Shown: positions 4,330 through 38,600 of the stretch, one piece after another
Layout: every line of letters begins with the position of its first letter
How positions within the stretch are numbered: the stretch's first letter is position 1
NCBI RefSeq assembly: GCF_026210795.1
Contig: NC_089434.1
Location: 372,001-436,000, forward strand
Length of the DNA: 64,000 bases
Direction: 5' to 3'
Source of the DNA: Rhizophagus irregularis
Taxonomy: Eukaryota
The notes under the pieces: generated by a model
Databases searched by the model: none
Seen by the model: only the letters and a program-made list of their open reading frames with translations
What the model was told of the DNA's origin: nothing
Made by a program: the position numbers and the translations under genes

Positions 4330-5450
4330 ATGAAAATTAATATTCAAGTAGTTTCAGTCCGCCTGAATAATTTCAATTAATAAAGAAAGTTGATTTCATT
4401 TGACTAAAGTGGAGATATTATGCTCTAAATTAAAAAACAGAGAAGAGAGTTAATATTATCAAGAAAAATGCAATTTTCTCCAAGTACTATACTTACATTC
4501 ATGAAAATTAATATTTAAGTAGTTTCAATCTGCCTGAACAACTTTCAATTAATAAAGAAAGTTGATTTCATTTGACTAAAGTGGAGATATTACGCTCTAA
4601 ATTAAAAAACAGAGAAGAGAGTTAATATCATCAAGAAAAATGCAATTTTCTCCAAGTATTACACTTACATTCATGAAAATTAATATCCAAGTAGTTTCAA
4701 CCCGTCTGAACAACTTTCAATTAATAAAGAAAGTTGATTTCATTTGACTAAAGTGGAGATATTACACTCTAAATTAAAAAACAGAGAAGAGAGTTAATAT
4801 CATCAAGAAAAATACAATTTTCTCCAAGTATTACACTTACCTTCATGAAAATTAATATTCAAGTAGTTTTAACCCGCCTGAACAATTTTAAATAATAAAG
4901 AAAGTTGATTTCATTTGACTAAAGTGGAGATATTACGCTCTAAATTAAAAACAGAGAAGAGAGTTAATATCATCAAGAAAAATATAATTTTCTCCAAGTA
5001 TTACACTTACTTTCATGAAAATTAATATTCAAGTAGTTTCAACCCTCCTGAACAACTTTCAATTAATAAAGAAAGTTGATTTCATTTGACTAAAGTGAAG
5101 ATATTATCTCTAAATTAAAAAACAGAGAAAAGAGTTAATATTATCAAGAAAAATGCAATTTTCTCCAAGTACTATACTTACATTCATGAAAATTAATATT
5201 TAAGTAGTTTCAATCCGCCTGAACAACTTTCAATTAATAAAGAAAGTTGATTTCATTTGACTAAAGTGGAGATATTATGCTCTAAATTAAAAAACAGAGA
5301 AGAGAGTTAATATTATCAAGAAAAATACAATTTTCTCTAAGTACTATACCTACATTTATGAAAATTAATATTCAAGTAGTTTCAATTCTGCTGAAATAAA
5401 GTTGATTTCATTTGGCTAAAGTGATGAAATTATAACCTGAAGTTAAAAAA
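4330..5450 (-). repeat. ~171-172 bp tandem repeat, 6 full copies plus a partial copy
   Basis: Unit starts at 4330, 4501, 4673, 4845, 5015, 5186, 5358; on the minus strand the units carry a GTAAGT...TTAAC...TTTAG intron-like segment of ~72 nt. Confidence 0.9.
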
Positions 5451-7319: not shown

Positions 7320-7580
7320 AGGCACAGTAGATCCTAATTTTCCACATGATTTTCTGACGTAGTAATGATTTTGCAATAATTGATCTACATCTGGTTTGTT
7401 TGTCATATATGCAATGATGCAATGCTTGTACTTGCTTTTGTACATAATGTATTTTGCATAAATATTATTACCATATTTATTCATACTAATAAAGACGTTT
7501 AAAAGGCATTTAATAATAATAAAAAAAAAAAGAAAAGAAGATATTTATCTTTTTCAATTAGGAAGAGTTTTGATATAGCA

Positions 7581-10500
7581 ATGGGCCAATGTATTGGTAA
7601 AGGTAAAGCATATAACATGATTAATAATATAAATTGGAATTATTCAAATTATTAAAACAAACTTGCAATATAATAAAACTAGTTTTGTGTAATACCAAAG
7701 AACCTGAAGGTAAATATTATATAGTACAAAACAAAATTGAAATAATAAGATTTTTATCTATTAAAAAACTTAATTGTAAATAATCAAATACAAATAAACC
7801 AAATTTGCAATATAACAAAACTAGTTTCCAGTAATATTGAAGAATTTGAAGAAAGTGGCACTGAAGAATTTGAAAGAAGTAGCATTGAGAAATTTGAAGA
7901 AAGTGGCACTGGAGAATCTAAAGGTATATCAAACAAGCTGAAATATTAAATTTTTATTTATAAACAATTCAAATACTATCTAGGCTAACTATATTATATA
8001 AAATATATAAAAATTATATTAAATATTTAGCTCGTAAGTTAATATAATGAATTACTCATTATTTTTATTGCATTCCATATAACTAAATAATTTATTCAAT
8101 AATTAATAATCTGTAGTTAGTAAGTTATCAGTTATTTAAATCTTTAGTCCTTTACTTTATTTATTCTATACAACATTCAAATAACTAAATTCTTTGTTTA
8201 AATAACTATTTAATAATTAATTGTATTACAGATGGTAAGTTACAATATAAATATAATATTTATTTGTTTAATATTTTACATAATTCAACTAATTATATTC
8301 TTAATTTAAATAACTAGATTGTAAGTAATATATATAATTTACAGTAAATACATTTATATTATTTTTATATCTAACTAATTAATAATTAATAATACTACAG
8401 GGTGTAAGTTATATGATATTTATATTTATATTATTTATATAATTTAAACTATCTAATTTCTTTATTTAAAAAATCATTAAATAATATAGGGAGTAAGTTA
8501 TTTATTTAATTCTATTATTACTTATTGTTATTATATTTACATATAATTTAAACTATCTAATTTCTTTATTTATTTAATAGTTCGTAAGTTATTTATTTAA
8601 TTTTATTATTACTTATTGTTATAATATTTACATATAATTTAAACTATCTAATTTCTTTATTTAAAAAATTATTTCATAGATGGTAAGTTATTTATTTAAT
8701 TCTATTATTACTTATTGTTATAATATTTACATATAATTTAAACTATCTAATTTCTTTATTTAAAAAATTATTAAATAATATAGAGAGTAAGTTATTTATT
8801 TAATTCTATTATTACTTATTGTTATAATATTTACATATAATTTAAACTATCTAATTTCTTTATTTATTTAATAGTTTGTAAGTTATTTATTTAATTTTAT
8901 TATTACTTATTGTTATAATATTTACATATAATTTAAACTATCTAATTTCTTTATTTATTTAATAGTTTGTAAGTTATTTATTTAATTTTATTATTACTTA
9001 TTGTTATAATATTTACATATAATTTAAACTATCTATTTTCTTTATTTAAAAAATTACTAAATAATATAGGGAGTAAGTTATTTATTTAATTCTATTATTA
9101 CTTATTGTTATAATATTTACATATAATCTAAACTATCTAATTTCTTTATTTATTTAATAGTTCGTAAGTTATTTATTTAATTTTATTATTACTTATTGTT
9201 ATAATATTTACATATAATTTAAACTATCTAATTTCTTTATTTATTTAATAGTTCGTAGGTTATTTATTTAATTCTATTATTACTTATTGTTATAATATTT
9301 ACATATAATTTAAACTATCTAATTTCTTTATTTAAAAAATTATTTCATAGATGGTAAGTTATTTATTTAATTCTATTATTACTTATTGTTATAATATTTA
9401 CATAAGTTTTACATATAATTTAAACTATCTAATTTCTTTATTTAAAAAATTATTTCGTAGATTGTAAGTTATTTATTTAATTCTATTATTACTTATTGTT
9501 ATAATATTTACATATAATTTAAACTATCTAATTTCTTTATTTAAAAAATTATTAAATAATATAGAGAGTAAGTTATTTATTTAATTCTATTATTACTTAT
9601 TGTTATAATATTTACATATAATTTAAACTATCTAATTTCTTTATTCAAAAAATTATTAAATAATATAGGGAGTAAGTTATTTGTTTAATTCTATTATTAC
9701 TTATTGTTATAATATTTACATATAATTTAAACTATCTAATTTCTTTATTTAAAAAATTATTAAATAATATAGAGAGTAGGTTATTTATTTAATTCTATTA
9801 TTACTTATTATTATAATATTTACATATAATTTAAACTATCTAATTTCTTTATTTAAAAAATATTTATGATCTAGCTTGTAAGTATCTCTATTATTATATA
9901 TTTTATATAATATTTATTTGTTAATTTAACTCTTTCATTTAAAAAAATATTTATGACTTTAGTTGGTAAGTTGTAAATTATAGATTATTATATGTATTTA
10001 TCCAAAAACTAAGACTTATATTACATTAAATTCCTATTTAAATTTTAGAGTAAGTAATGATTTATTTTAGTGTAAATTATAATACAATCTATAATATAAT
10101 TTTAATTCTTTAAATTTATAGATTTGGGAAAAGTGGAAATGCAATTATAGATGATTTTGTTCTTAAAAAAAAATTAAGGTGGATTCCTTATAACAAATTT
10201 AAAAATGTTGAATATCTTAATGAAGGAGGATTTGGTACTACTATATACAAAGCTACTTGGTTAAAGAATAATGGAGATGAAGAAGTAATTCTTAAATGTC
10301 CCAAGAATTTAAATGAAAATTTAAATGAATTTTTAAAAGAAGTATGATAGTATATTATTTTCTATTTTTAAATTTATTTATATTTAATAATAATAATTAT
10401 TATTTTTTATAGTGGGAATATCATACAAGTGTTTTATCTTCAAATGATATTATAGATGTTTATGGATTCACAGAAGATACAAATACTTCAAAATATATGG

Positions 10501-11510
10501 TAGTAATGTACTATGCAAATAAAGGTAATTTAAGAGAAAATTTAACAAGAATAGTCGAAAATAAATGGAATCAAAAATTATATATGTTGTACGAAATTAT
10601 TTCTGGACTTAGTAAGATACATAGAAATAATCTTATTCATTGTGATTTTCATGATGGTAATATTTTAAATCATAATGATAAGAATAAGGATAAAATTTAT
10701 ATTAGTGATTTAGGATTATGTCAACCTGTAAAATCGTTTTTGAAAAAGTATGGTATTTATGGTGTTATACCATTTATGGCTCCTGAAGTTTTAAGAGGCA
10801 AATCTTATACTCCAGCTAGTGATATATATAGTTTTTCTATGATTATGTGGGAACTTACATCCGGGGTACCACCATTTAATGATAGAGCACATGATCTTCA
10901 ACTTAGTTTAAGTATTTGTAAAGGTGAACGACCTGAAATTATTGAAAATACTCCACAATGCTATGTAGATTTAATGAAAAAATGTTGGAATGAAGATCCA
11001 TTGAAAAGGCCATCTACTTCAGAAGTGAATGGTATTATTAAGAATTGGATTATCCGTCCTGATGGTAAAATTAATGAAGAATTAAAAAGCAACATTATGG
11101 AATTTATAAATGCACCAATTGTGCATAGCGATCTAGCTACTAAATCTCATCCTAAAGCATATTATACAAGTCGCTTACTTGATTTCACTAGTAAAAAATT
11201 GAATGAAATTCTTGAAAGTGAAAATTTGGATAATTATATAATTAAAGATTTGAAGTCATTAGGTACTATGCAATATAGTGCATATAAAATTTAATCTTGC
11301 AAATTATTTGTGAAAATAATTTATTTATTTATTTATTTAGATATTAAGGCAGATGAAAATACTAGTGAAAACTTGAATGAAATTCTTGAAAGCGAAGATT
11401 CACAAGCTAGTGTAAAAGTAAATGAACAGCTAGTAAGTGACGATTTGGATGATTATATGATGCATTCAACAAAAATTGTTCTTTATTTTATTCTTTTTAG
11501 ATTTATTTAA
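7581..11510 (+). CDS. TKL-family protein kinase with lipidation-type N-terminus and microexon array (possibly a disrupted allele)
   Basis: Proposed exons 7581-7602, 7683-7709, 7825-7923, 21 three-nt exons 8031-9965, 1-nt exon 10049, 10122-10341, 10413-11262, 11341-11510. Kinase motifs EGGFG, VILK, HCDFHDGN, SDLG, APE, SDIYSF. Confidence 0.8.
8031..10049 (+). repeat. Tandem intron+microexon array (core units of 91, 99 and 104 bp)
   Basis: Every unit reads TAG/CAG-NNN-GTAAGT (two have GTAGGT); the core units have a CTAAT branch-like motif. Confidence 0.9.
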
Positions 11511-11745
11511 ACACTAAGGCTAGAGTAGTAAAATGTTTTACAAGTTTCTTAGTTTGTAATTTAAATAATTCTTTTTTTTTAGCTTATATTTTTATATTCA
11601 CTTTTTTTATTATACTTAGAATTATTTAAACACTAGGACTAGGTAGTAAATATTTTACAAGTTTCTTAGTTTGTAATTTAAATAAATCCTTTTTTTTTAT
11701 TTTAAAACTTTTCCAATTATGAGATATAAATTATCAAAATAATAA

Positions 11746-20168: not shown

Positions 20169-23100
20169 TTAAACAGAATTTTTCTGATCGTCATCAATCA
20201 CAGTATCAAGATCATCAAGATCATCTGTAAAAGTAAGTAATTGAGATTTAGGTGTAATAGTTGATTGGTTGCTTTTAAAATTTTTAAAAATATTTTCTTT
20301 GTAATAACCTTCATCAAAATCTTTAAAAAATGCTCTACGACGTTCATGGTATTCGGTATTAGTATCAAGCGCTATTAAAAAAGCAATTGGCCTATTGTCT
20401 GGATTTGAATCCCAACAACTTTTCATTATGTCAATATATTCTTTTGGTGCTTCCCACTCTTCTATTTTAGGTCTCATCCCTCTACATATATTTAATATTA
20501 GGCATTTATCATGTATATGATCAGCAAAAGGTTGCCTTCCAGTTGCTATAAAATACATAATCATACCGAAGCTATACATATCTGCCGCCTTAGTATAGGG
20601 TTTTCCTCTCAACACTTCAGGAGCCATATAAGACATAACTCCACACATATGTTTTTCGTTCATATCATTAATATCTCCACATAATCCAAAATCTGAAATA
20701 AATAAATCAAAAGAAACAAGATGACCAGTTGCTAATATATTTCCTGTATGAAGATCTCGATGAACTATATTTTTATTATGCAAGTGACTAATACCACGAA
20801 TAATTTTATTTATTGCTTTCATTTTTCCCTCCATTCGATATCTTTATAATAATTAGTCATCCAATTATTAAGATCTCCACCTTCCGCATATTTAAGAACC
20901 ATAATATAATTTTTTGTATTAGGATCTTGAGATATTCCGAACATTTCAAGAATATTTCCTTGATAAGTACGTGTTTTTGTTGAGTACTTTTTAATCTATT
21001 AAAATATCAATTTTTCAGTTATAATAATACTATTATTTAAATTGAATTTAATAAAAAAATTTCATACCTCATTCAAAAATTTATCAGGAATATTTTGTGA
21101 ATTATCTAAACACTTTAAAGCAACTTCTTCATTATACTTTCTTTCATATTTATATTCCTCTTCATTGTAAATTAACGGACCATCATTCCATATTGCTGAA
21201 TATACTGTAGAAAACCCACCTTGTCCTATTTTTTCAATGTTACTAAATTGATCGTAAGGTATCCATTCAAATATTACATAATAATAGCCACCTATATTCG
21301 ATCGCATTTCTTGAATGAGATTATCAATCCTTTTATTTCCACTGGTCCAATTTTTATTTAAACTGCTTATTTGACACGGTTTACACCATTTATAATGTAT
21401 ATGATTATCATCTATATATTTTTCATCACATTTTTCACATCGTTCAAATTCAACTATTCTAATATAATTTTTTGAATCTGGATTTTGAGATATTCCATAT
21501 ATTTTACAACTACTATGATTTTCAATTTGACTAGAATCAATCTATTAAATAAAAAAAATTGTATTATTAAAAAATTGAATATATTGTAAATAAACTTGAA
21601 TATTAAAATACAAAAATATTTATAATTCATACATTTTTTAGAAGTTCAGTTATATCTTGTGAATCGTGTACCTTTAAAGTAACTTTCTTATTCGATTCCC
21701 TTGTTTGTTCTTTCTTACAATATGATGGTCCATCAATCCAAATTGCTGAATATACTGCATCAGTTTCTGTTTCTTTAATATCACTTAATTGATCATATGG
21801 TATCCATTCAAATATTATATCGCCATTACTAATTTGTAATTGCATTTTTTGGATAAAATAATCAATTTCCTCATTTCCGCTGGTCCAGTTTGTAAAATTA
21901 TTTTGTAAATTATCTAATTTGCATGGTATGCAATGCCCGTACCATACATAATAACGTTTAAATATTTCACTATAACCGCATTTTTCACAATAATATAAAT
22001 GATCAAAATGATCAAGAACCATAATATAATCTTTTGTATCTGGATCTTGAGATATACCATAAATTTTATGATCATGACCATCACGATCACTATTAATTGA
22101 GTGATATTCCATAAGCTTATATAATAAAAAAAATTAATATTACGTTAAAAAAGAAAAGGATAATATTTTGTATAAATAATTTCATACCTCATCTAGAACT
22201 TCCTCATTTATATTTTGTGAATTATACACATATTTTAAAGCAACGCCTTTATTTGGTGATTTTCTTATTAATTTCTTTTTTCCAGAATGATAACTTAACG
22301 GGCCATCAATCCATGTTGCTAAATATAATGTAGTTGGACCATTGCCTATTTTTCGAGTAATATTTAAATGATCATACGGTATCCATTCAAATATATTATC
22401 GTCAACTTTTATTTGTCTTGATCGAATTTCTTGAATCAATTTATTAATAGTTTTATCCTCGCTAATAAACTTGTTTTCTAAATCTTTTAATTGACATTCT
22501 CTACACCATTCATACGCTCGCATGCCACAATTTTCGCAAAAGCCATGATAAACCATCATATACTCTTTTGTATATGGATGTTGAGTTATTGCAATTATTT
22601 TACGTCCAATGCGAAATGAATCATGTTTTTCAATCTAATAAAATAAGTAGTTATCGAATAAAAAAAAAAGAAGAAAATCAGTTAATTAATGCAGCACATT
22701 TTAACAATCTTTAACATAATCAACTAATTTAATTTTAAAATAATGATAATTACCTCTTTTATAAATTCAGTTGCACTTAGTGAATTGGTACTTTTTATAA
22801 CTTTTATAACAACTTTTCTATTTGATTTCCTCCTATATATTTTTTTATTAAAATCATAATACAATGGACCATCCCTCCATATTGATGAGTAGAGCGTACA
22901 GGATTCATCATAATTTTCCATTTTTTCAGTTTTTCCAAAATCATAGTGTAGTATCCATTCAAATGTCGTATATTTTGGATCATTAATTTTTTCTAATTGC
23001 TTTTGTCGAATATAATCATCAATCTTTACATTTTCACTAGTCCAATTTTTAAAATTTTTTACAAAATAATTCGTTTGACATGATTGACACCATTTATTCT

Positions 23101-23845
23101 CGTCATTATCGTCTTCAGTATTTTTGGTTAAATTTTCTAAGCACTCATTACAATCTACTACAAGGCCCTCTTTTATTATGCCACTAGGTATATATATAAA
23201 TTTAATAGGAAAATCATAAAACTCCATGCAAAATAATAATAAAATATATGAAAAAAGAAGTATTTCCAAGGCACCTATTTCTAAGAAACTAAGGTCAAAT
23301 AAATAATTTGAATCTAATATAACAAACAATATAGATGCATATGATGAAGTTAATATAATTTTTGTGGAAATGAAACATGAATAAAAAATTTTTTCAAAAA
23401 AATTTTCAATGTTAGTTACATAATAAAGAAAAGATCTGAATTCTTCCATACGCATCTCTCTCATTATAGCAAAACTAGTTTCACGTTTAAGATAAGGAAT
23501 ATAAAAATCAAGAAAAATCATCATCTTGATCTGATTAATCATCAAAATCGGATAATACATTAATTTTATTTTTAAAGGTTTAATTTCATCTTCAATAGAT
23601 TCAATTAAACGTTTGGATCCATCATCAATAGATGCAAATTCATGTTTAATACTGGATTTAAAAACACGTTTAAATTCTTCATATTCTTCATCAGCGGAAT
23701 AAAAATCACAAAAAAGAAACCAGTCTCGACATATCACAAACAAAACTGTCATACATAATGAAGCTGCGAAAATAGAATATGAGAAAGCTATGAAAATAGA
23801 AAACAAGAAAATGACCAATCTGATGTCAATATTGATTAGACCCAT
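20169..23845 (-). CDS. TKL kinase with hydrophobic N-terminus and four tandem Cys-rich/N-lobe modules; 1-nt frameshift in the last exon
   Basis: Exons 23845-22754, 22634-22188, 22115-21633, 21541-21068, 20995-20169 with phase-0 GT-AG introns; HRDLHTGN, SDFG, APE motifs; frame breaks at an A5 run at 20822-20826. Confidence 0.8.
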
Positions 23846-24604
23846 GATTTTTATTTTTTTTAAAAAAAAAATAAAAATAAAAATAAGAACGATAAATAAA
23901 AGGTCACATACACTGTTTATATAGTTTAATAATAAGATTATTGGTTAAACTATATTAAGAACATCACATGCAAACAAAATTCTTTTCATTTATCGCCTAA
24001 ACCAGCTGATCTGCGGTCAAATCATGATTTTTATAGCGACTACTATTTTACTTTGTTTTATTTACTATTTTTGGATTAGGTTACCGTTGATTTAAGAGAT
24101 CTGCATCCCAAACATTGTTTTATTTTCCAAAATTAATTTAAGCAGTCCTAGTAGGACCCGAGCAAGGACAGGTCCTGAGAATGAGCCAAAAAATAATGTA
24201 GATCGCTTCTATTTGTGGATAATTCCGACCAGCATTACATAGTGCCGGCCCTGAAGAAATGCGTAGAGCTAATAGTAAATGTGTGCCGATCTCTCCTGAC
24301 CTACTTGATTGGTTGCAATAATACCTAATTGCGTGCGCAAGTGGAAGCTGTGCAAATTCGCAAAAAGCGACTTCAGTTCTTGTAAACTAATGTCAATGTT
24401 GACAAAAAACTTTTAAAGTTAATGTTCATTTATTTCTGTCACTGTATGTTCATGTAAGATTTATGTCTATTTTATTATATCTAGAATATCAATGAAGAAG
24501 CCAGATCATAGAGTTATTGTTGGATATAGGTTTAAATAAAGGTGCTTTACGGGTATTAGTAAGAATATCATTTCGCTTTGTAAAATAGAACTATGAATAG
24601 CTAA

Positions 24605-34441: not shown

Positions 34442-35665
34442 TTATGCAAAATCTTGAGGCATATTTGATGTTGCACTGCTACCGTCATTATTATGTTCTG
34501 AGTCCTCGTCTGAATCCTTTGGCAAAACGTTACCAGAGTCATCATTTGAAGCCGAATTTGATTCTTTCTTATCTGGATCATCTGGATCTGGCTCGTTAGC
34601 AGTTTTAGCTGGATCATCTGAATCTGGTTCGTTATATTCTTCAATTTTAGCTGGATCATCTGGATCTGGTTCGTTAGGTGTGACAGTTTTAGCTGGATCA
34701 TCTGGATCTGGTTCGTTAGCAGTTTTTGCTGGATCATCTGGATCTGGTTCGTTAGCAGTTTTTGCTGGATCATATGGATCTGGCTCGTTAGTTGTGGCAG
34801 TTTTAGCTGGATCATATGGATCTGGCTCGTTAGTTGTTGTAGTTTTAGCTGAATCATCTGAATATGGCTCGTTAGTTGTAGCAGTTTTAGCTGGATCATC
34901 TGGATCTGGTTCGTTGGGTGTGGCAGTTTTAGCTGGATCATCTGGATCTGGTTCGTTAGTTGTAGCAGTTTCAGTTGAATAATCTGAATATGGCTCGTTA
35001 GGTGTGGCAGTTTTAGCTGGATCATCTGGATCTGGCTCGTTAGTAGTTTTAGCTGGATCGTCTGGATCTGGTTCGTTAGTAGTTTTAGCTGGATCGTCTG
35101 GATCTGGCTCGTTAGTAGTTTTAGATGGATCATCTGGATCTGGTTCGTTAGTTGTAGCAGTTTCAGTTGAATAATCTGAATATGGCTCGTTAGTTGTGGC
35201 AGATTTAGCTGGTTCGTAAGGTGTAGCATTAGGGGTAGTTGTGCTAGGTAAATCTTGTGCCTGAAGTAAACCATTAATTTCTTTATTTTTTGGAGATTTT
35301 TCACAAAGTTCAGATGGTTGGCCTACTTCTGGGGTGTTTCGTTCTAATTGACGATATGTTATTGCAAGTTGAATAAGTTGTTTCTCTTTTTCTCCTCCGA
35401 GAGCATGACCTAGGTCAATTATTTCATCTGCTTTATCTTGTTGGTCACAAGCTGGTGCATCAGCAAAAAGTGCTTCTATTGCACTAACAGATAAATCAGC
35501 ACCCTCTGATTCTTTGTCAGTACCTTGAGTTAAATTCTTTATATCTTGAAAAATACTGACAGCTTGTGGGGAACCTTCATTTCCAAAACGTCTTTTGCTT
35601 ATAGGAGCCCCATGAGAAATTATAGCAAATGACAAAAAAACTGAGAGAACTGATGATAGCCTCAT
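34442..35665 (-). CDS. Secreted protein: signal peptide, KRR site, small Cys-containing domain, acidic Pro/Thr repeat tail
   Basis: 407-aa intronless ORF; hydrophobic N-terminus; roughly 15 NEPDPDDPAKT-type repeats. Confidence 0.9.
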   Translation of the reverse strand: MRLSSVLSVFLSFAIISHGAPISKRRFGNEGSPQAVSIFQDIKNLTQGTDKESEGADLSVSAIEALFADAPACDQQDKADEIIDLGHALGGEKEKQLIQLAITYRQLERNTPEVGQPSELCEKSPKNKEINGLLQAQDLPSTTTPNATPYEPAKSATTNEPYSDYSTETATTNEPDPDDPSKTTNEPDPDDPAKTTNEPDPDDPAKTTNEPDPDDPAKTATPNEPYSDYSTETATTNEPDPDDPAKTATPNEPDPDDPAKTATTNEPYSDDSAKTTTTNEPDPYDPAKTATTNEPDPYDPAKTANEPDPDDPAKTANEPDPDDPAKTVTPNEPDPDDPAKIEEYNEPDSDDPAKTANEPDPDDPDKKESNSASNDDSGNVLPKDSDEDSEHNNDGSSATSNMPQDFA

Positions 35666-38600
35666 TGGTAGTTTATCAAAAAAAGAATGTTTAAAACGAT
35701 ATTAAATGTTTATGATGGGAGATTTTAAAGTAGGGGAAAAATTTAGAGAGGGGGAAAAAAAGAGAAACTTAAGGGAGGAAATTTAGAGCACCAGCTCTAT
35801 TGTATATAAATTTTTTTTTTTTTTTTTTTGGATGAAACGATATGAAGGATGAGTGAGTGAATGATAAAATTTTGAGATTATTTATATCTTTTGAAAAAGA
35901 GTGATTTACAAAATTATCATTATTTCCATCTTTAGTATTTGAGATTAAGTTAGGATATTTTACAGTATCGTTTCTCAATTTTTTATTGTCAATCATTATA
36001 TGTCATCATCCAATAATAATGGGAGAATAAATTTAGGTAACCTTGAAAGAGCAATTAAAATAAATTTGATCGACGATAAATTACCCATTTGATTTCCGAA
36101 ATATTCGAGTTTAAACACATAATAAACTTTTTTAAATTTTCATACTATATTTCGTTTTTTCGGAATTGTAAATCTATAACCTTTATTAATATCATTCTCA
36201 ATAACTAAATTTTATATATAAAAGAATTTTCGTTTTATAATAATTTAAAATAAAAAAAAAAAGAAAAACTGATCTCCAAATTATTAGTATGATCGTCTTG
36301 CATTTTGTGTTACAATATGTTTATAAACCCTTTTAAATTAATTTGAAATATAATTCCGTTTATTAAATTAATTTCGGTTATTATGGAAAAAAAAAAAAAA
36401 AATTATTTTCCATATTTAAAGGATTTTCGGTGACTTATCCATAATTAACTATATCCCACATTTCGGATTTTCGGTGAATTACCCATAATTAAAAAATAAT
36501 GAGAGTAAATCCCGGTATCAATCTATAATCATAAGTTATATAATTTTTATTAATTAAATAACATTTTTTTTTTTATACGTATAATCATATGATACGACAA
36601 ATATGTAAGTAATAATACTGTATATTCATACGAGTAATAATTTTCCTTTAAAAAATTATTGGTTTATAATATATAAATTATTATATGTCCTATAATTAAT
36701 AATTCGACCAATTTTCTGCAAATAGTAAAAAAGAATTTAATTCCGAATGTTAACCTCGTACACTTATAAATAATAGTAATAAACATATCCATTACATGGA
36801 AACTTCTACTAAAAAAAGGTTTTTCATCCGAGTAGGGAAGATAATTAATTAAAATTCGATGATTAAATGATCAAAAGGATAACTTAAAAAGAAGGTTAGG
36901 ATCAAAATTGACTAAATAAAGTAACATTATAGCGAAAATAAAAAATTAACTAAATAATGGGTAACATTATAGCGTTAATCAAATATAATAAATTAAATGA
37001 ACTGATTTTGAACCGGGAACCGGGAACGATTTTTAGAAATACTTTTTTTTTTTTCGTATGTATTTCGTTTATATTTAATATTATAAAATAAATTTAGGTT
37101 ATAATAAATATTCTTTTTTTCATTGAACATCGTTTTATTATAATGAATATATAATTTTTTTTTTTTGTTTTTCAAATGTATCTCGTCATTATCAAAAAAT
37201 TTAAATTAAGGTTATATAATATAATAAATATGATTTATTCACGTTTCATTAAAAATTTAAATGAGCAGCGTAAGTTATAATAAGATTTTTTTTTTTAGAC
37301 AATTTTGATAATTTAAGATTAAATAAACAAATAAAATTAACAAAATAAAATTTTTTATATTCTCGTAATTAGAATGATAAAAAAAAAAGTTCTTTATTTT
37401 ATAATTAATAATTTTACCATATTTGAATAGTATAATACAGTTCTTCATTATGCTTAAAACAAAAATCGACTTGTTATGTCCACTTATAGGTAATTGATTA
37501 TACACCGATCCTGTTATGAATTTCCACGAAGTTATAAATGCCAGATATTCGGGATAAACCGATACCAAGACACGTTAAAAAAATGAAATATTAAATGGGT
37601 TAAACATTGAGATTTTCTTGAGAAAGAATTTATTTTTTTCAGAAATATATAATGAGGTTAGGTCGTTTTTACGAACTAACGTATAAATGTTAATATTTAC
37701 CATTATTCTTAGTGCCTAAACATACCTGGATGATAATTCCTCCCTCGTGAATGGACGGCACTTCATGTTTTTATAACGTAACATTCTTATAGAATATATT
37801 GTTAAACTTACTACTCTACACATTATCAAAGGATATTACGAAAAATTAAGAGGAAATTCGTCAATTATGTGTATAATAATTGGAAGGTCCAGAAAAGCGA
37901 AACTATTAATTATTATCGTTATATTCTGAATCCAATACTCTTAAATGTTCCATTCGAATTACAAATAACATTCCGTAGAAAGAAATTTACTACATTGTTA
38001 CGCAGCAAAGGGCGCCTGCACATTATTGATGAAATAGTCAAATTCTGAAACTGTTCGTCATTGTTTTTTTACATCATGCGCCTATTGAAAACGTGTGCGG
38101 AATGACCTTTAAAGATATTACATATTGCGAAAATATAACTTCCGGCACTTGAGATAGATCCGCGGATGTTAAAAAATATATAGGATTTTCATCCACATGA
38201 ATGTCGCCCATGATACAGAATAAATCCCGGTTACTGATCAACTTAATACGGTGCATTACTTCATTAGGAAAATTATTCGGCATATTAACCATAAGAAAAT
38301 AACAATATATTTATTCTTTTGTTAAAATAAAATACTAACATTGGATTATCCGCAGTTAACATAAATGGTTAATCGTATTTTTCGTATTTTGAATTTAAAA
38401 ATGGAATGTCCAGTGATGTCACAGGAACGCCCAAACCGACGTTAAGTAGTGGTCTTTGGAACACGCTAAACAATATTTTGAGAATATGAACGATTCATCT
38501 TAGAAACTAATCATTTGTTATCCTTCAAAAAACGCTTCGCTTAAAGGATCATCCATTGTCACTTCAACTATACTTGCATGATTAATCTTACGGTAAATAA

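Follow-up and report, generated by a model that had tools for sequence, protein, structure and literature searches.

Codon-sized mini-exons have been described in the nank (NACHT-ankyrin) genes of the truffle Tuber melanosporum, a finding of Iotti et al. (2012) that is cited in several later accounts (PMC4986451, PMC10197012, PMC13449251). In Schistosoma, the MEG genes, which encode secreted proteins, have exons mostly of 15 nt (3–81 nt) and introns of up to 5 kb, according to the available text of 10.1101/2023.06.21.545858. Smaller exons have also been reported: the accessible part of one account gives 13 exons of 1 nt and 27 of 3 nt in Coprinopsis (PMC12230235), and a single-nucleotide exon is described for Arabidopsis in the available portion of PMC4674806. 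Among the openly accessible papers listed in literature searches, none dealt with microexon arrays in Glomeromycota.

Within a 64,000-nucleotide stretch of the Rhizophagus irregularis genome (the window), a TKL-type kinase gene contains 21 consecutive AG-NNN-GT units (8031–9965), followed by a 1-nt exon at 10049. Across the window, YAGnnnGTARGT has 23 matches, of which 21 fall within 8028–9971, all on the forward strand, against a shuffle expectation averaging 0.77 and reaching 5 at most (100 shuffles). The microexon array is a real structure. Donor and acceptor lie exactly 3 nt apart in every unit, with indels confined to the introns, which are 71–115 nt long and all have GT..AG ends; a CTAA-type branch motif is found in 20 of the 23 introns between 7924 and 10121. 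The reading we favour, and hold to be probable, is that the repeat at 8404–9877 represents the middle, duplicated recently, of a run of 21 units and a 1-nt exon, that sister genes splice such units into a short variable peptide ahead of the kinase, that misaligned recombination in a shared intron core reshuffles them, and that a premature stop has arisen in this copy.

The first-pass annotation had recognised three classes of cassette over 8404–9877, in which unit length, intron 3′ end and triplet co-vary (A, 104 bp, GGA or AGA; B, 91 bp, TTC or TTT; C, 99 bp, ATG or ATT), arranged as A B C A B B A B B C C A A A, with one C unit of 110 bp arising by an 11-bp duplication. Parsing of the units, which open with GTAAGT (GTAGGT in two) and close with TAG plus three bases, reproduced the co-variation, the order and the duplication. 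The length of 104 bp given for A units holds except in the first (8404–8492, exon GGA), an 89-bp left edge unit whose chimeric intron has a 5′ half of old, non-array sequence and a 3′ half of class A, and a fifteenth cassette (9776–9877, 102 bp, exon CTT) adds to the three classes a fourth 3′ class, D, on the array core. A unit tree recovers the 3′ classes and nothing further. The 14 recent cassettes thus delimited (8493–9877; 3′ classes B C A B B A B B C C A A A D), each closing with a 3-nt exon, sit within a longer run. Upstream are five older 3-nt exons (8031, 8117, 8232, 8318 and 8401, spanning 8031–8403), the introns between them being diverged and 80–112 nt long; downstream are the last 3-nt exon, TTG (9963–9965), and the 1-nt exon, A (10049), all on the plus strand.

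A 77-nt intron core is common to the 14 recent cassettes, with a mean of 1.4 differences per 77 core bases over 91 pairs, which bears out the earlier suggestion of recent duplication of exon-intron cassettes. The accompanying picture of a near-identical centre and diverged outer units was not upheld: single cores depart from the majority of the 14 at 0–2 of 77 bases, independent of position (Spearman -0.01), and divergence takes the form of a sharp step at the two chimeric edge introns. A C-A pair at 8584–8786 reappears as C-C′-A at 9255–9567, including an exact repeat of 182 bp, the longest in the array. The intron at 8969–9069 is the sole array intron with an altered CTAAT motif (position 68), and a private change there creates a fresh CTAAA motif at 13 nt from the acceptor, which is possibly compensatory, or else a matter of chance. 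Elsewhere in the window, a second chain of short exon-like pieces (110–1060; pieces of 11–35 nt, GT..AG introns of about 70–90 nt, 110-bp period) has lengths that are mostly not multiples of three, and a 172-bp repeat occurs in six copies at 4330–5386.

The host gene opens with a coding exon at 7562–7602 (ATG at 7581), giving an N-terminus of MG with Cys4, a putative lipid-anchor signal. Exon 2 (7683–7709; 27 nt, phase 1) and exon 3 (7825–7923; 99 nt, phase 1), the latter an acidic Glu/Ser repeat linker, follow; in relatives, RNA joins 7602 to exon 3 through the letters of exon 2, which lie between exons 1 and 3 in 10 + 6 X22 reads. Exons 1–3 differ from gene model P0170 by one residue, and the N-terminus of the product is, by eye, polar and acidic. 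Beyond the array comes an exon with the FGKSGN/WIPY motif and the start of the kinase N-lobe at 10122–10341, followed by the main kinase exon (10413–11262; PF07714/PF00069; 100% identity to P0001) and the last coding exon (11341–11512), all on the plus strand. The tail encoded by the last exon is unlike that of P0122, a related allele, which would fit a rearrangement at the 3′ end of the gene, and behind this exon lies a 117-bp tandem duplication of intron-like sequence (11481–11697).

Over 97% of its length, the exon downstream of the array is 100% identical to P0001, a R. irregularis protein named kinase-like (PF07714, PF00069) with a family of 1,953 homologues, and the nearest solved structures to the kinase are EGFR, CTR1 and RIPK1. 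The sequence has the features of a TKL-type kinase, namely PF07714/PF00069, Gly loop, Lys and catalytic Asp, and the kinase is the only domain found in the host gene. At 10236, three bases in the Gly-loop region are extra relative to about half of the family reads and to two related metagenome loci, L001 and L002. Two other genes in the window are a minus-strand kinase gene with multiple repeats (20169–23944) and one for a secreted-looking protein with a 14-residue repeat (34442–35701).

Because exon 3 finishes in phase 1 and the kinase exon at 10122 begins in phase 2, only phase-1 triplets plus a single base can bridge the frame, and each residue is made of the last base of one microexon and the first two bases of the next. 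A phase-0 reading, in which every exon is a codon and no stop arises, is ruled out because the frames of exon 3 and the kinase demand phase 1, and the last exon in RNA is of 1 nt, not 5 nt. The earlier proposal that single residues are gained or lost does not fit this phase, since 12 of the 21 single removals alter a neighbouring residue too and only nine are pure one-residue deletions. Moreover, full inclusion gives an in-frame TAG at the junction of exons ATT (9461–9463) and AGA (9565–9567), on the plus strand, where the earlier copy of the same block, ATG followed by AGA, reads Glu. On the predicted exons, this copy is broken unless one of these two exons is skipped, and we lean towards its being dead. 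A stop also appeared in 67% of 20,000 random orders of the 14 array exons.

Skipping could itself be the purpose of such an array, which would then be a splicing-level diversifier like Tuber nank, combinatorial skipping keeping this copy alive through isoforms without the ATT or AGA exon. All 21 three-base exons are frame-neutral, omission of exon 16 or 17 reopens the frame (2 of 21 single skips), independent skipping at 10% would leave 18% of messages open, the kinase motifs of this copy are intact, and the cited accounts of nank (PMC4986451, PMC10197012, PMC13449251) offer a precedent as far as their text describes it. We nevertheless consider this reading somewhat unlikely: the donors of the array units are near-consensus GTAAGT, the mixed reads cannot tell isoforms from paralogues, and window alleles are nearly absent in the RNA runs (196 of 198 reads differ at 10159), which may come from another strain.

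The favoured reading, of units spliced by sister genes, draws support from raw RNA reads, which were aligned at 88% likeness to the two flanks of the array. A search of indexed sequencing runs listed no RNA run containing the sequence, an outcome that weighs neither way. On the right flank, four runs (at most three samples, two studies) gave 3,096 reads, and the strings quoted here for loose ends are column consensuses over mixed relatives, of at most 30 letters. Loose ends before 10122 numbered 253, 336, 356 and 43 reads in the four runs, with the consensus end CTT-TTG-A in four of four, which corresponds to the final two triplets and the single base in the window copy. The joint from 10049 to 10122 (GT..AG) is seen in 34 reads, and three X24 reads pass from the intron end through TTG and A into the exon, so that the joining of a 3-nt to a 1-nt exon is directly visible. 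The frames of all four 3′ consensus strings are open. On the left flank, the loose ends behind exon 3 keep the order of the older triplets. Among the best-supported groups, with 104 and 114 loose-end rows beyond those given here, a 14-read consensus behind exon 3 agrees with the first six triplets at 15 of 18 letters and with the 12 letters that follow at 6, and two X24 groups fit the window order at 12 of 14 and 11 of 13 letters; the fit is poor for two further groups (7 of 12 and 3 of 11).

Sister genes, as these reads show, join tiny exons into messages in the predicted order at both ends of the array, for the outer exons only. Reads at least 99% like the window copy number 4 of 3,096 on the right flank and 1 of 272 on the left (5 of 3,368 in total), so the RNA support is at the level of the family and covers the outer exons, not the splicing of the duplicated middle. 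Agreement between reads within the loose ends is 0.57–0.70, against 0.85–0.87 for ends into the next kinase exon, which marks the microexon segment as the variable part of the family's messages. Some reads are partly spliced, and in X5 contig 9 the 5′ introns have been removed and the introns around the first triplet retained. This suggests that microexon introns leave late and stepwise, with intron divergence among paralogues as a confounding factor.

As no flank-aligned read holds this copy's middle cassettes and full inclusion is untranslatable, the middle repeat, whose head-to-tail near-identical units have the form of a VNTR or minisatellite, could instead be an intronic minisatellite, removed as one piece in this copy, or an assembly artefact. 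This is very unlikely, given the 3-nt spacing of donor and acceptor in every unit with indels only in introns, and the same intron type flanking 3-nt exons in L002. Private variants in most units, together with a longest exact repeat of 182 bp, argue against a collapsed or inflated assembly.

The mode of cassette movement is informed by linkage within the array. Each intron has a 3′ end that goes with the exon following it, and intron position 20 is T after four of five TTY exons against none of nine others (p=0.005), which links the 5′ end to the preceding exon. The travelling unit would thus be an exon with both flanks, in place of the intron-plus-exon cassette first envisaged, with breakpoints in the shared core and new introns that are chimeric, as the two edge introns display. 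Such movement fits unequal crossover, and equally replication slippage or gene conversion. Older introns have weak similarity to the core, with z up to 8 (the 8120 intron), and introns 1 and 2 resemble each other with z 6; by sequence comparison, this points to earlier duplication rounds. Introner-like elements are near-identical introns inserted at many unrelated genes. The 77-nt core recurs in L002 and maps deeply in X15, where a summed depth of about 115,000 over the core, against about 180 for single contigs, does not equal copy number, and it has been seen only in this kinase family; the linkage between class and exon favours duplication.

Instability of tandem near-identical introns in a redundant kinase family might also be sufficient on its own, in which case the array would be a neutral by-product, the peptide a tolerant spacer without a recognition role, and the stops a contribution to birth-and-death turnover. 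The stop and altered tail of this copy, the cost of shuffling implied by stops in 67% of random orders, and the size of the family (1,953 homologues, its expansion being reported in the available text of PMC4219462) make this a distinct, if tentative, possibility. Against it stand the conserved ends of the segment (a DWW motif, then xFE ahead of FGKSGN), the open frames of the four 3′ consensus strings, and a slight excess of change at exon sites, 3 of 9 of which vary within classes, compared with 10 of 131 sites in introns (p=0.04, on small numbers).

Relatives of the array were sought in metagenomes, where a scan of 433 candidates yielded five loci, two of them informative (L001 and L002); none of the five spans an array, and no second allele was seen in the metagenome scan, flank RNA reads, genome contigs or viral contigs. 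Both informative loci retain the 1-nt exon. L002 has C-like and A-like 3′ ends, and its cassette intron is 89% identical to that of the window, against 77% for the kinase exon and 72% and 66% for its two non-cassette introns (shuffled means 56–63%); from this one locus, cassette classes would either be old or have passed between paralogues. L001 likewise has an ordinary intron that is better conserved than the exon (97% against 93%). L002 further contains a 33-bp duplication spanning a 3-nt exon (1–250), which may have converted this exon into a stop-free, in-frame exon of 36 nt. A bolder extension is that members of the kinase family draw on a common pool of exchangeable single-codon cassettes, with the intron core as a recombination handle within and between even distant paralogues, making the array a germline combinatorial diversifier of the sensing segment of membrane-tethered kinases of arbuscular mycorrhizal fungi, in which, codons being split, each cassette move would rewrite two residues. 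The better conservation of the L002 cassette intron than of its kinase exon, at one locus, is consistent with this extension, which we judge unlikely.

Public gene models break off behind exon 3, continue through the first triplet (six models), begin at the kinase exon, or appear to read phase 0, and the phase-1 segment signature was found in none of 342 fetched proteins, with no true-frame gene model among them. P0042 has 19 apparent phase-0 residues ending in MMLL, an end that matches that of the RNA consensus, and P0027 has 35; a composition screen for such misreadings picked out 8 of 199 N-terminal and 4 of 107 kinase parts, its 12-of-15 threshold not separating the two. Paralogues seem to hold 19–35 units, judging solely by where these residues lie in P0042 and P0027 and by their matching ends, a range that we infer because the models are predictor outputs. 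On these figures, 21 units would not be an expanded state, and may reflect turnover rather than the mass intron gain first proposed.

More widely, the exact array pattern had no match in genome contigs or viral contigs, and a looser two-exon pattern matched 91 and 13 stretches, respectively. Nine loosely matching stretches were examined, of which five resembled eukaryote-type arrays and four resembled unrelated repeats, none shown to belong to this kinase family. Two short contigs from a Candidatus Glomeribacter gigasporarum assembly (L074 and L082; 275 and 354 bp, 14–20% GC) have tandem 100-nt introns with 3-nt exons and are probably DNA of the arbuscular mycorrhizal (AM) fungal host; their introns have no significant similarity to the window intron. 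Stretches binned as Mycoplasma (L043 and L054; 27 and 29 motifs, 33-bp period), with 30-nt intron-like units and highly variable triplets, are probably from a protist. A 12.9-kb contig binned as Rhodobacterales (L080 and L071), with at least 84 units of about 102 bp and four alternating triplets between GT..AG ends, is probably eukaryotic.

Together, these data allow a mechanism to be proposed for the favoured reading. The message would run from exon 3 through the 3-nt exons and the 1-nt exon to the kinase, a path seen at family level for the outer exons only. In the DNA, every unit offers candidate splice signals, with GT..AG ends around a short intron (72–115 nt) and mostly a CTAA-type branch motif; the short introns may be recognised by intron definition and removed singly, which would make exon size irrelevant. 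With frame fixed at both ends in phase 1, two neighbouring exons would jointly set each residue. Crossovers or template slips in core positions 21–77, as the linkage suggests, would carry an exon with its acceptor and donor and leave chimeric introns; in this copy, an extra class-C cassette ending in T may have landed ahead of an AGA exon, creating the TAG and a gene that is dead or dependent on skipping. More speculatively, the variable peptide, rich in Asp, His, Arg and Trp, could set what the kinase senses or binds.

Such a locus would mean that a kinase subfamily of a model AM fungus has a hypervariable protein segment hidden from public gene models, which split, truncate or misframe it. 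The phase-1 layout also provides a sharp test of selection, as intact genes should avoid T-ending exons before those starting with AG, AA or GA, and two thirds of random orders fail. The locus further offers a natural case of how the spliceosome removes 22 introns with nearly no exon between them.

Compared with the systems described to date, the array is closest in layout to Tuber nank. As far as the cited accounts describe them, the nank genes share with the window gene tens of 3-nt exons, here 21 consecutive units, membership of an expanded gene family in a mycorrhizal fungus, and a proposed diversification of the encoded segment; mini-exons in mature RNA are likewise present here, at family level and for the outer exons. 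The window host is, however, a TKL-type kinase in Glomeromycota and not a NACHT-ankyrin NLR, and the evidence is for cassette turnover in DNA, whereas the Tuber proposal, in the available accounts, is of alternative splicing. The split codons (phase 1) of the window array and the 1-nt exon that closes its run may be further points of difference.

Schistosoma MEG genes, in the text available, likewise carry tiny, frame-neutral exons in series, which automatic annotation fails to resolve, but are built mainly of micro-exons with long introns, whereas microexons here supply 64 of about 1,420 coding bases (a 1.4-kb kinase coding sequence) and lie between introns of 72–112 nt. The Coprinopsis and Arabidopsis reports, as far as their accessible parts go, demonstrate that fungi and plants are able to splice exons of 1 nt and 3 nt, at about one per gene, against 22 in a row between homogenised introns here. 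Within R. irregularis itself, the window gene belongs to the expanded tyrosine kinase-like family (PF07714/PF00069) described in the available text of PMC4219462, other members of which have a CxxC..WCxxC segment before the SGN motif, at the place taken by the microexon-coded peptide in the window gene. The window array resembles Tuber nank in layout without being a member, its host being a kinase, and takes codon-sized exon arrays beyond a single truffle NLR family, into a distant phylum and another class of protein, with RNA support that includes a 1-nt exon.
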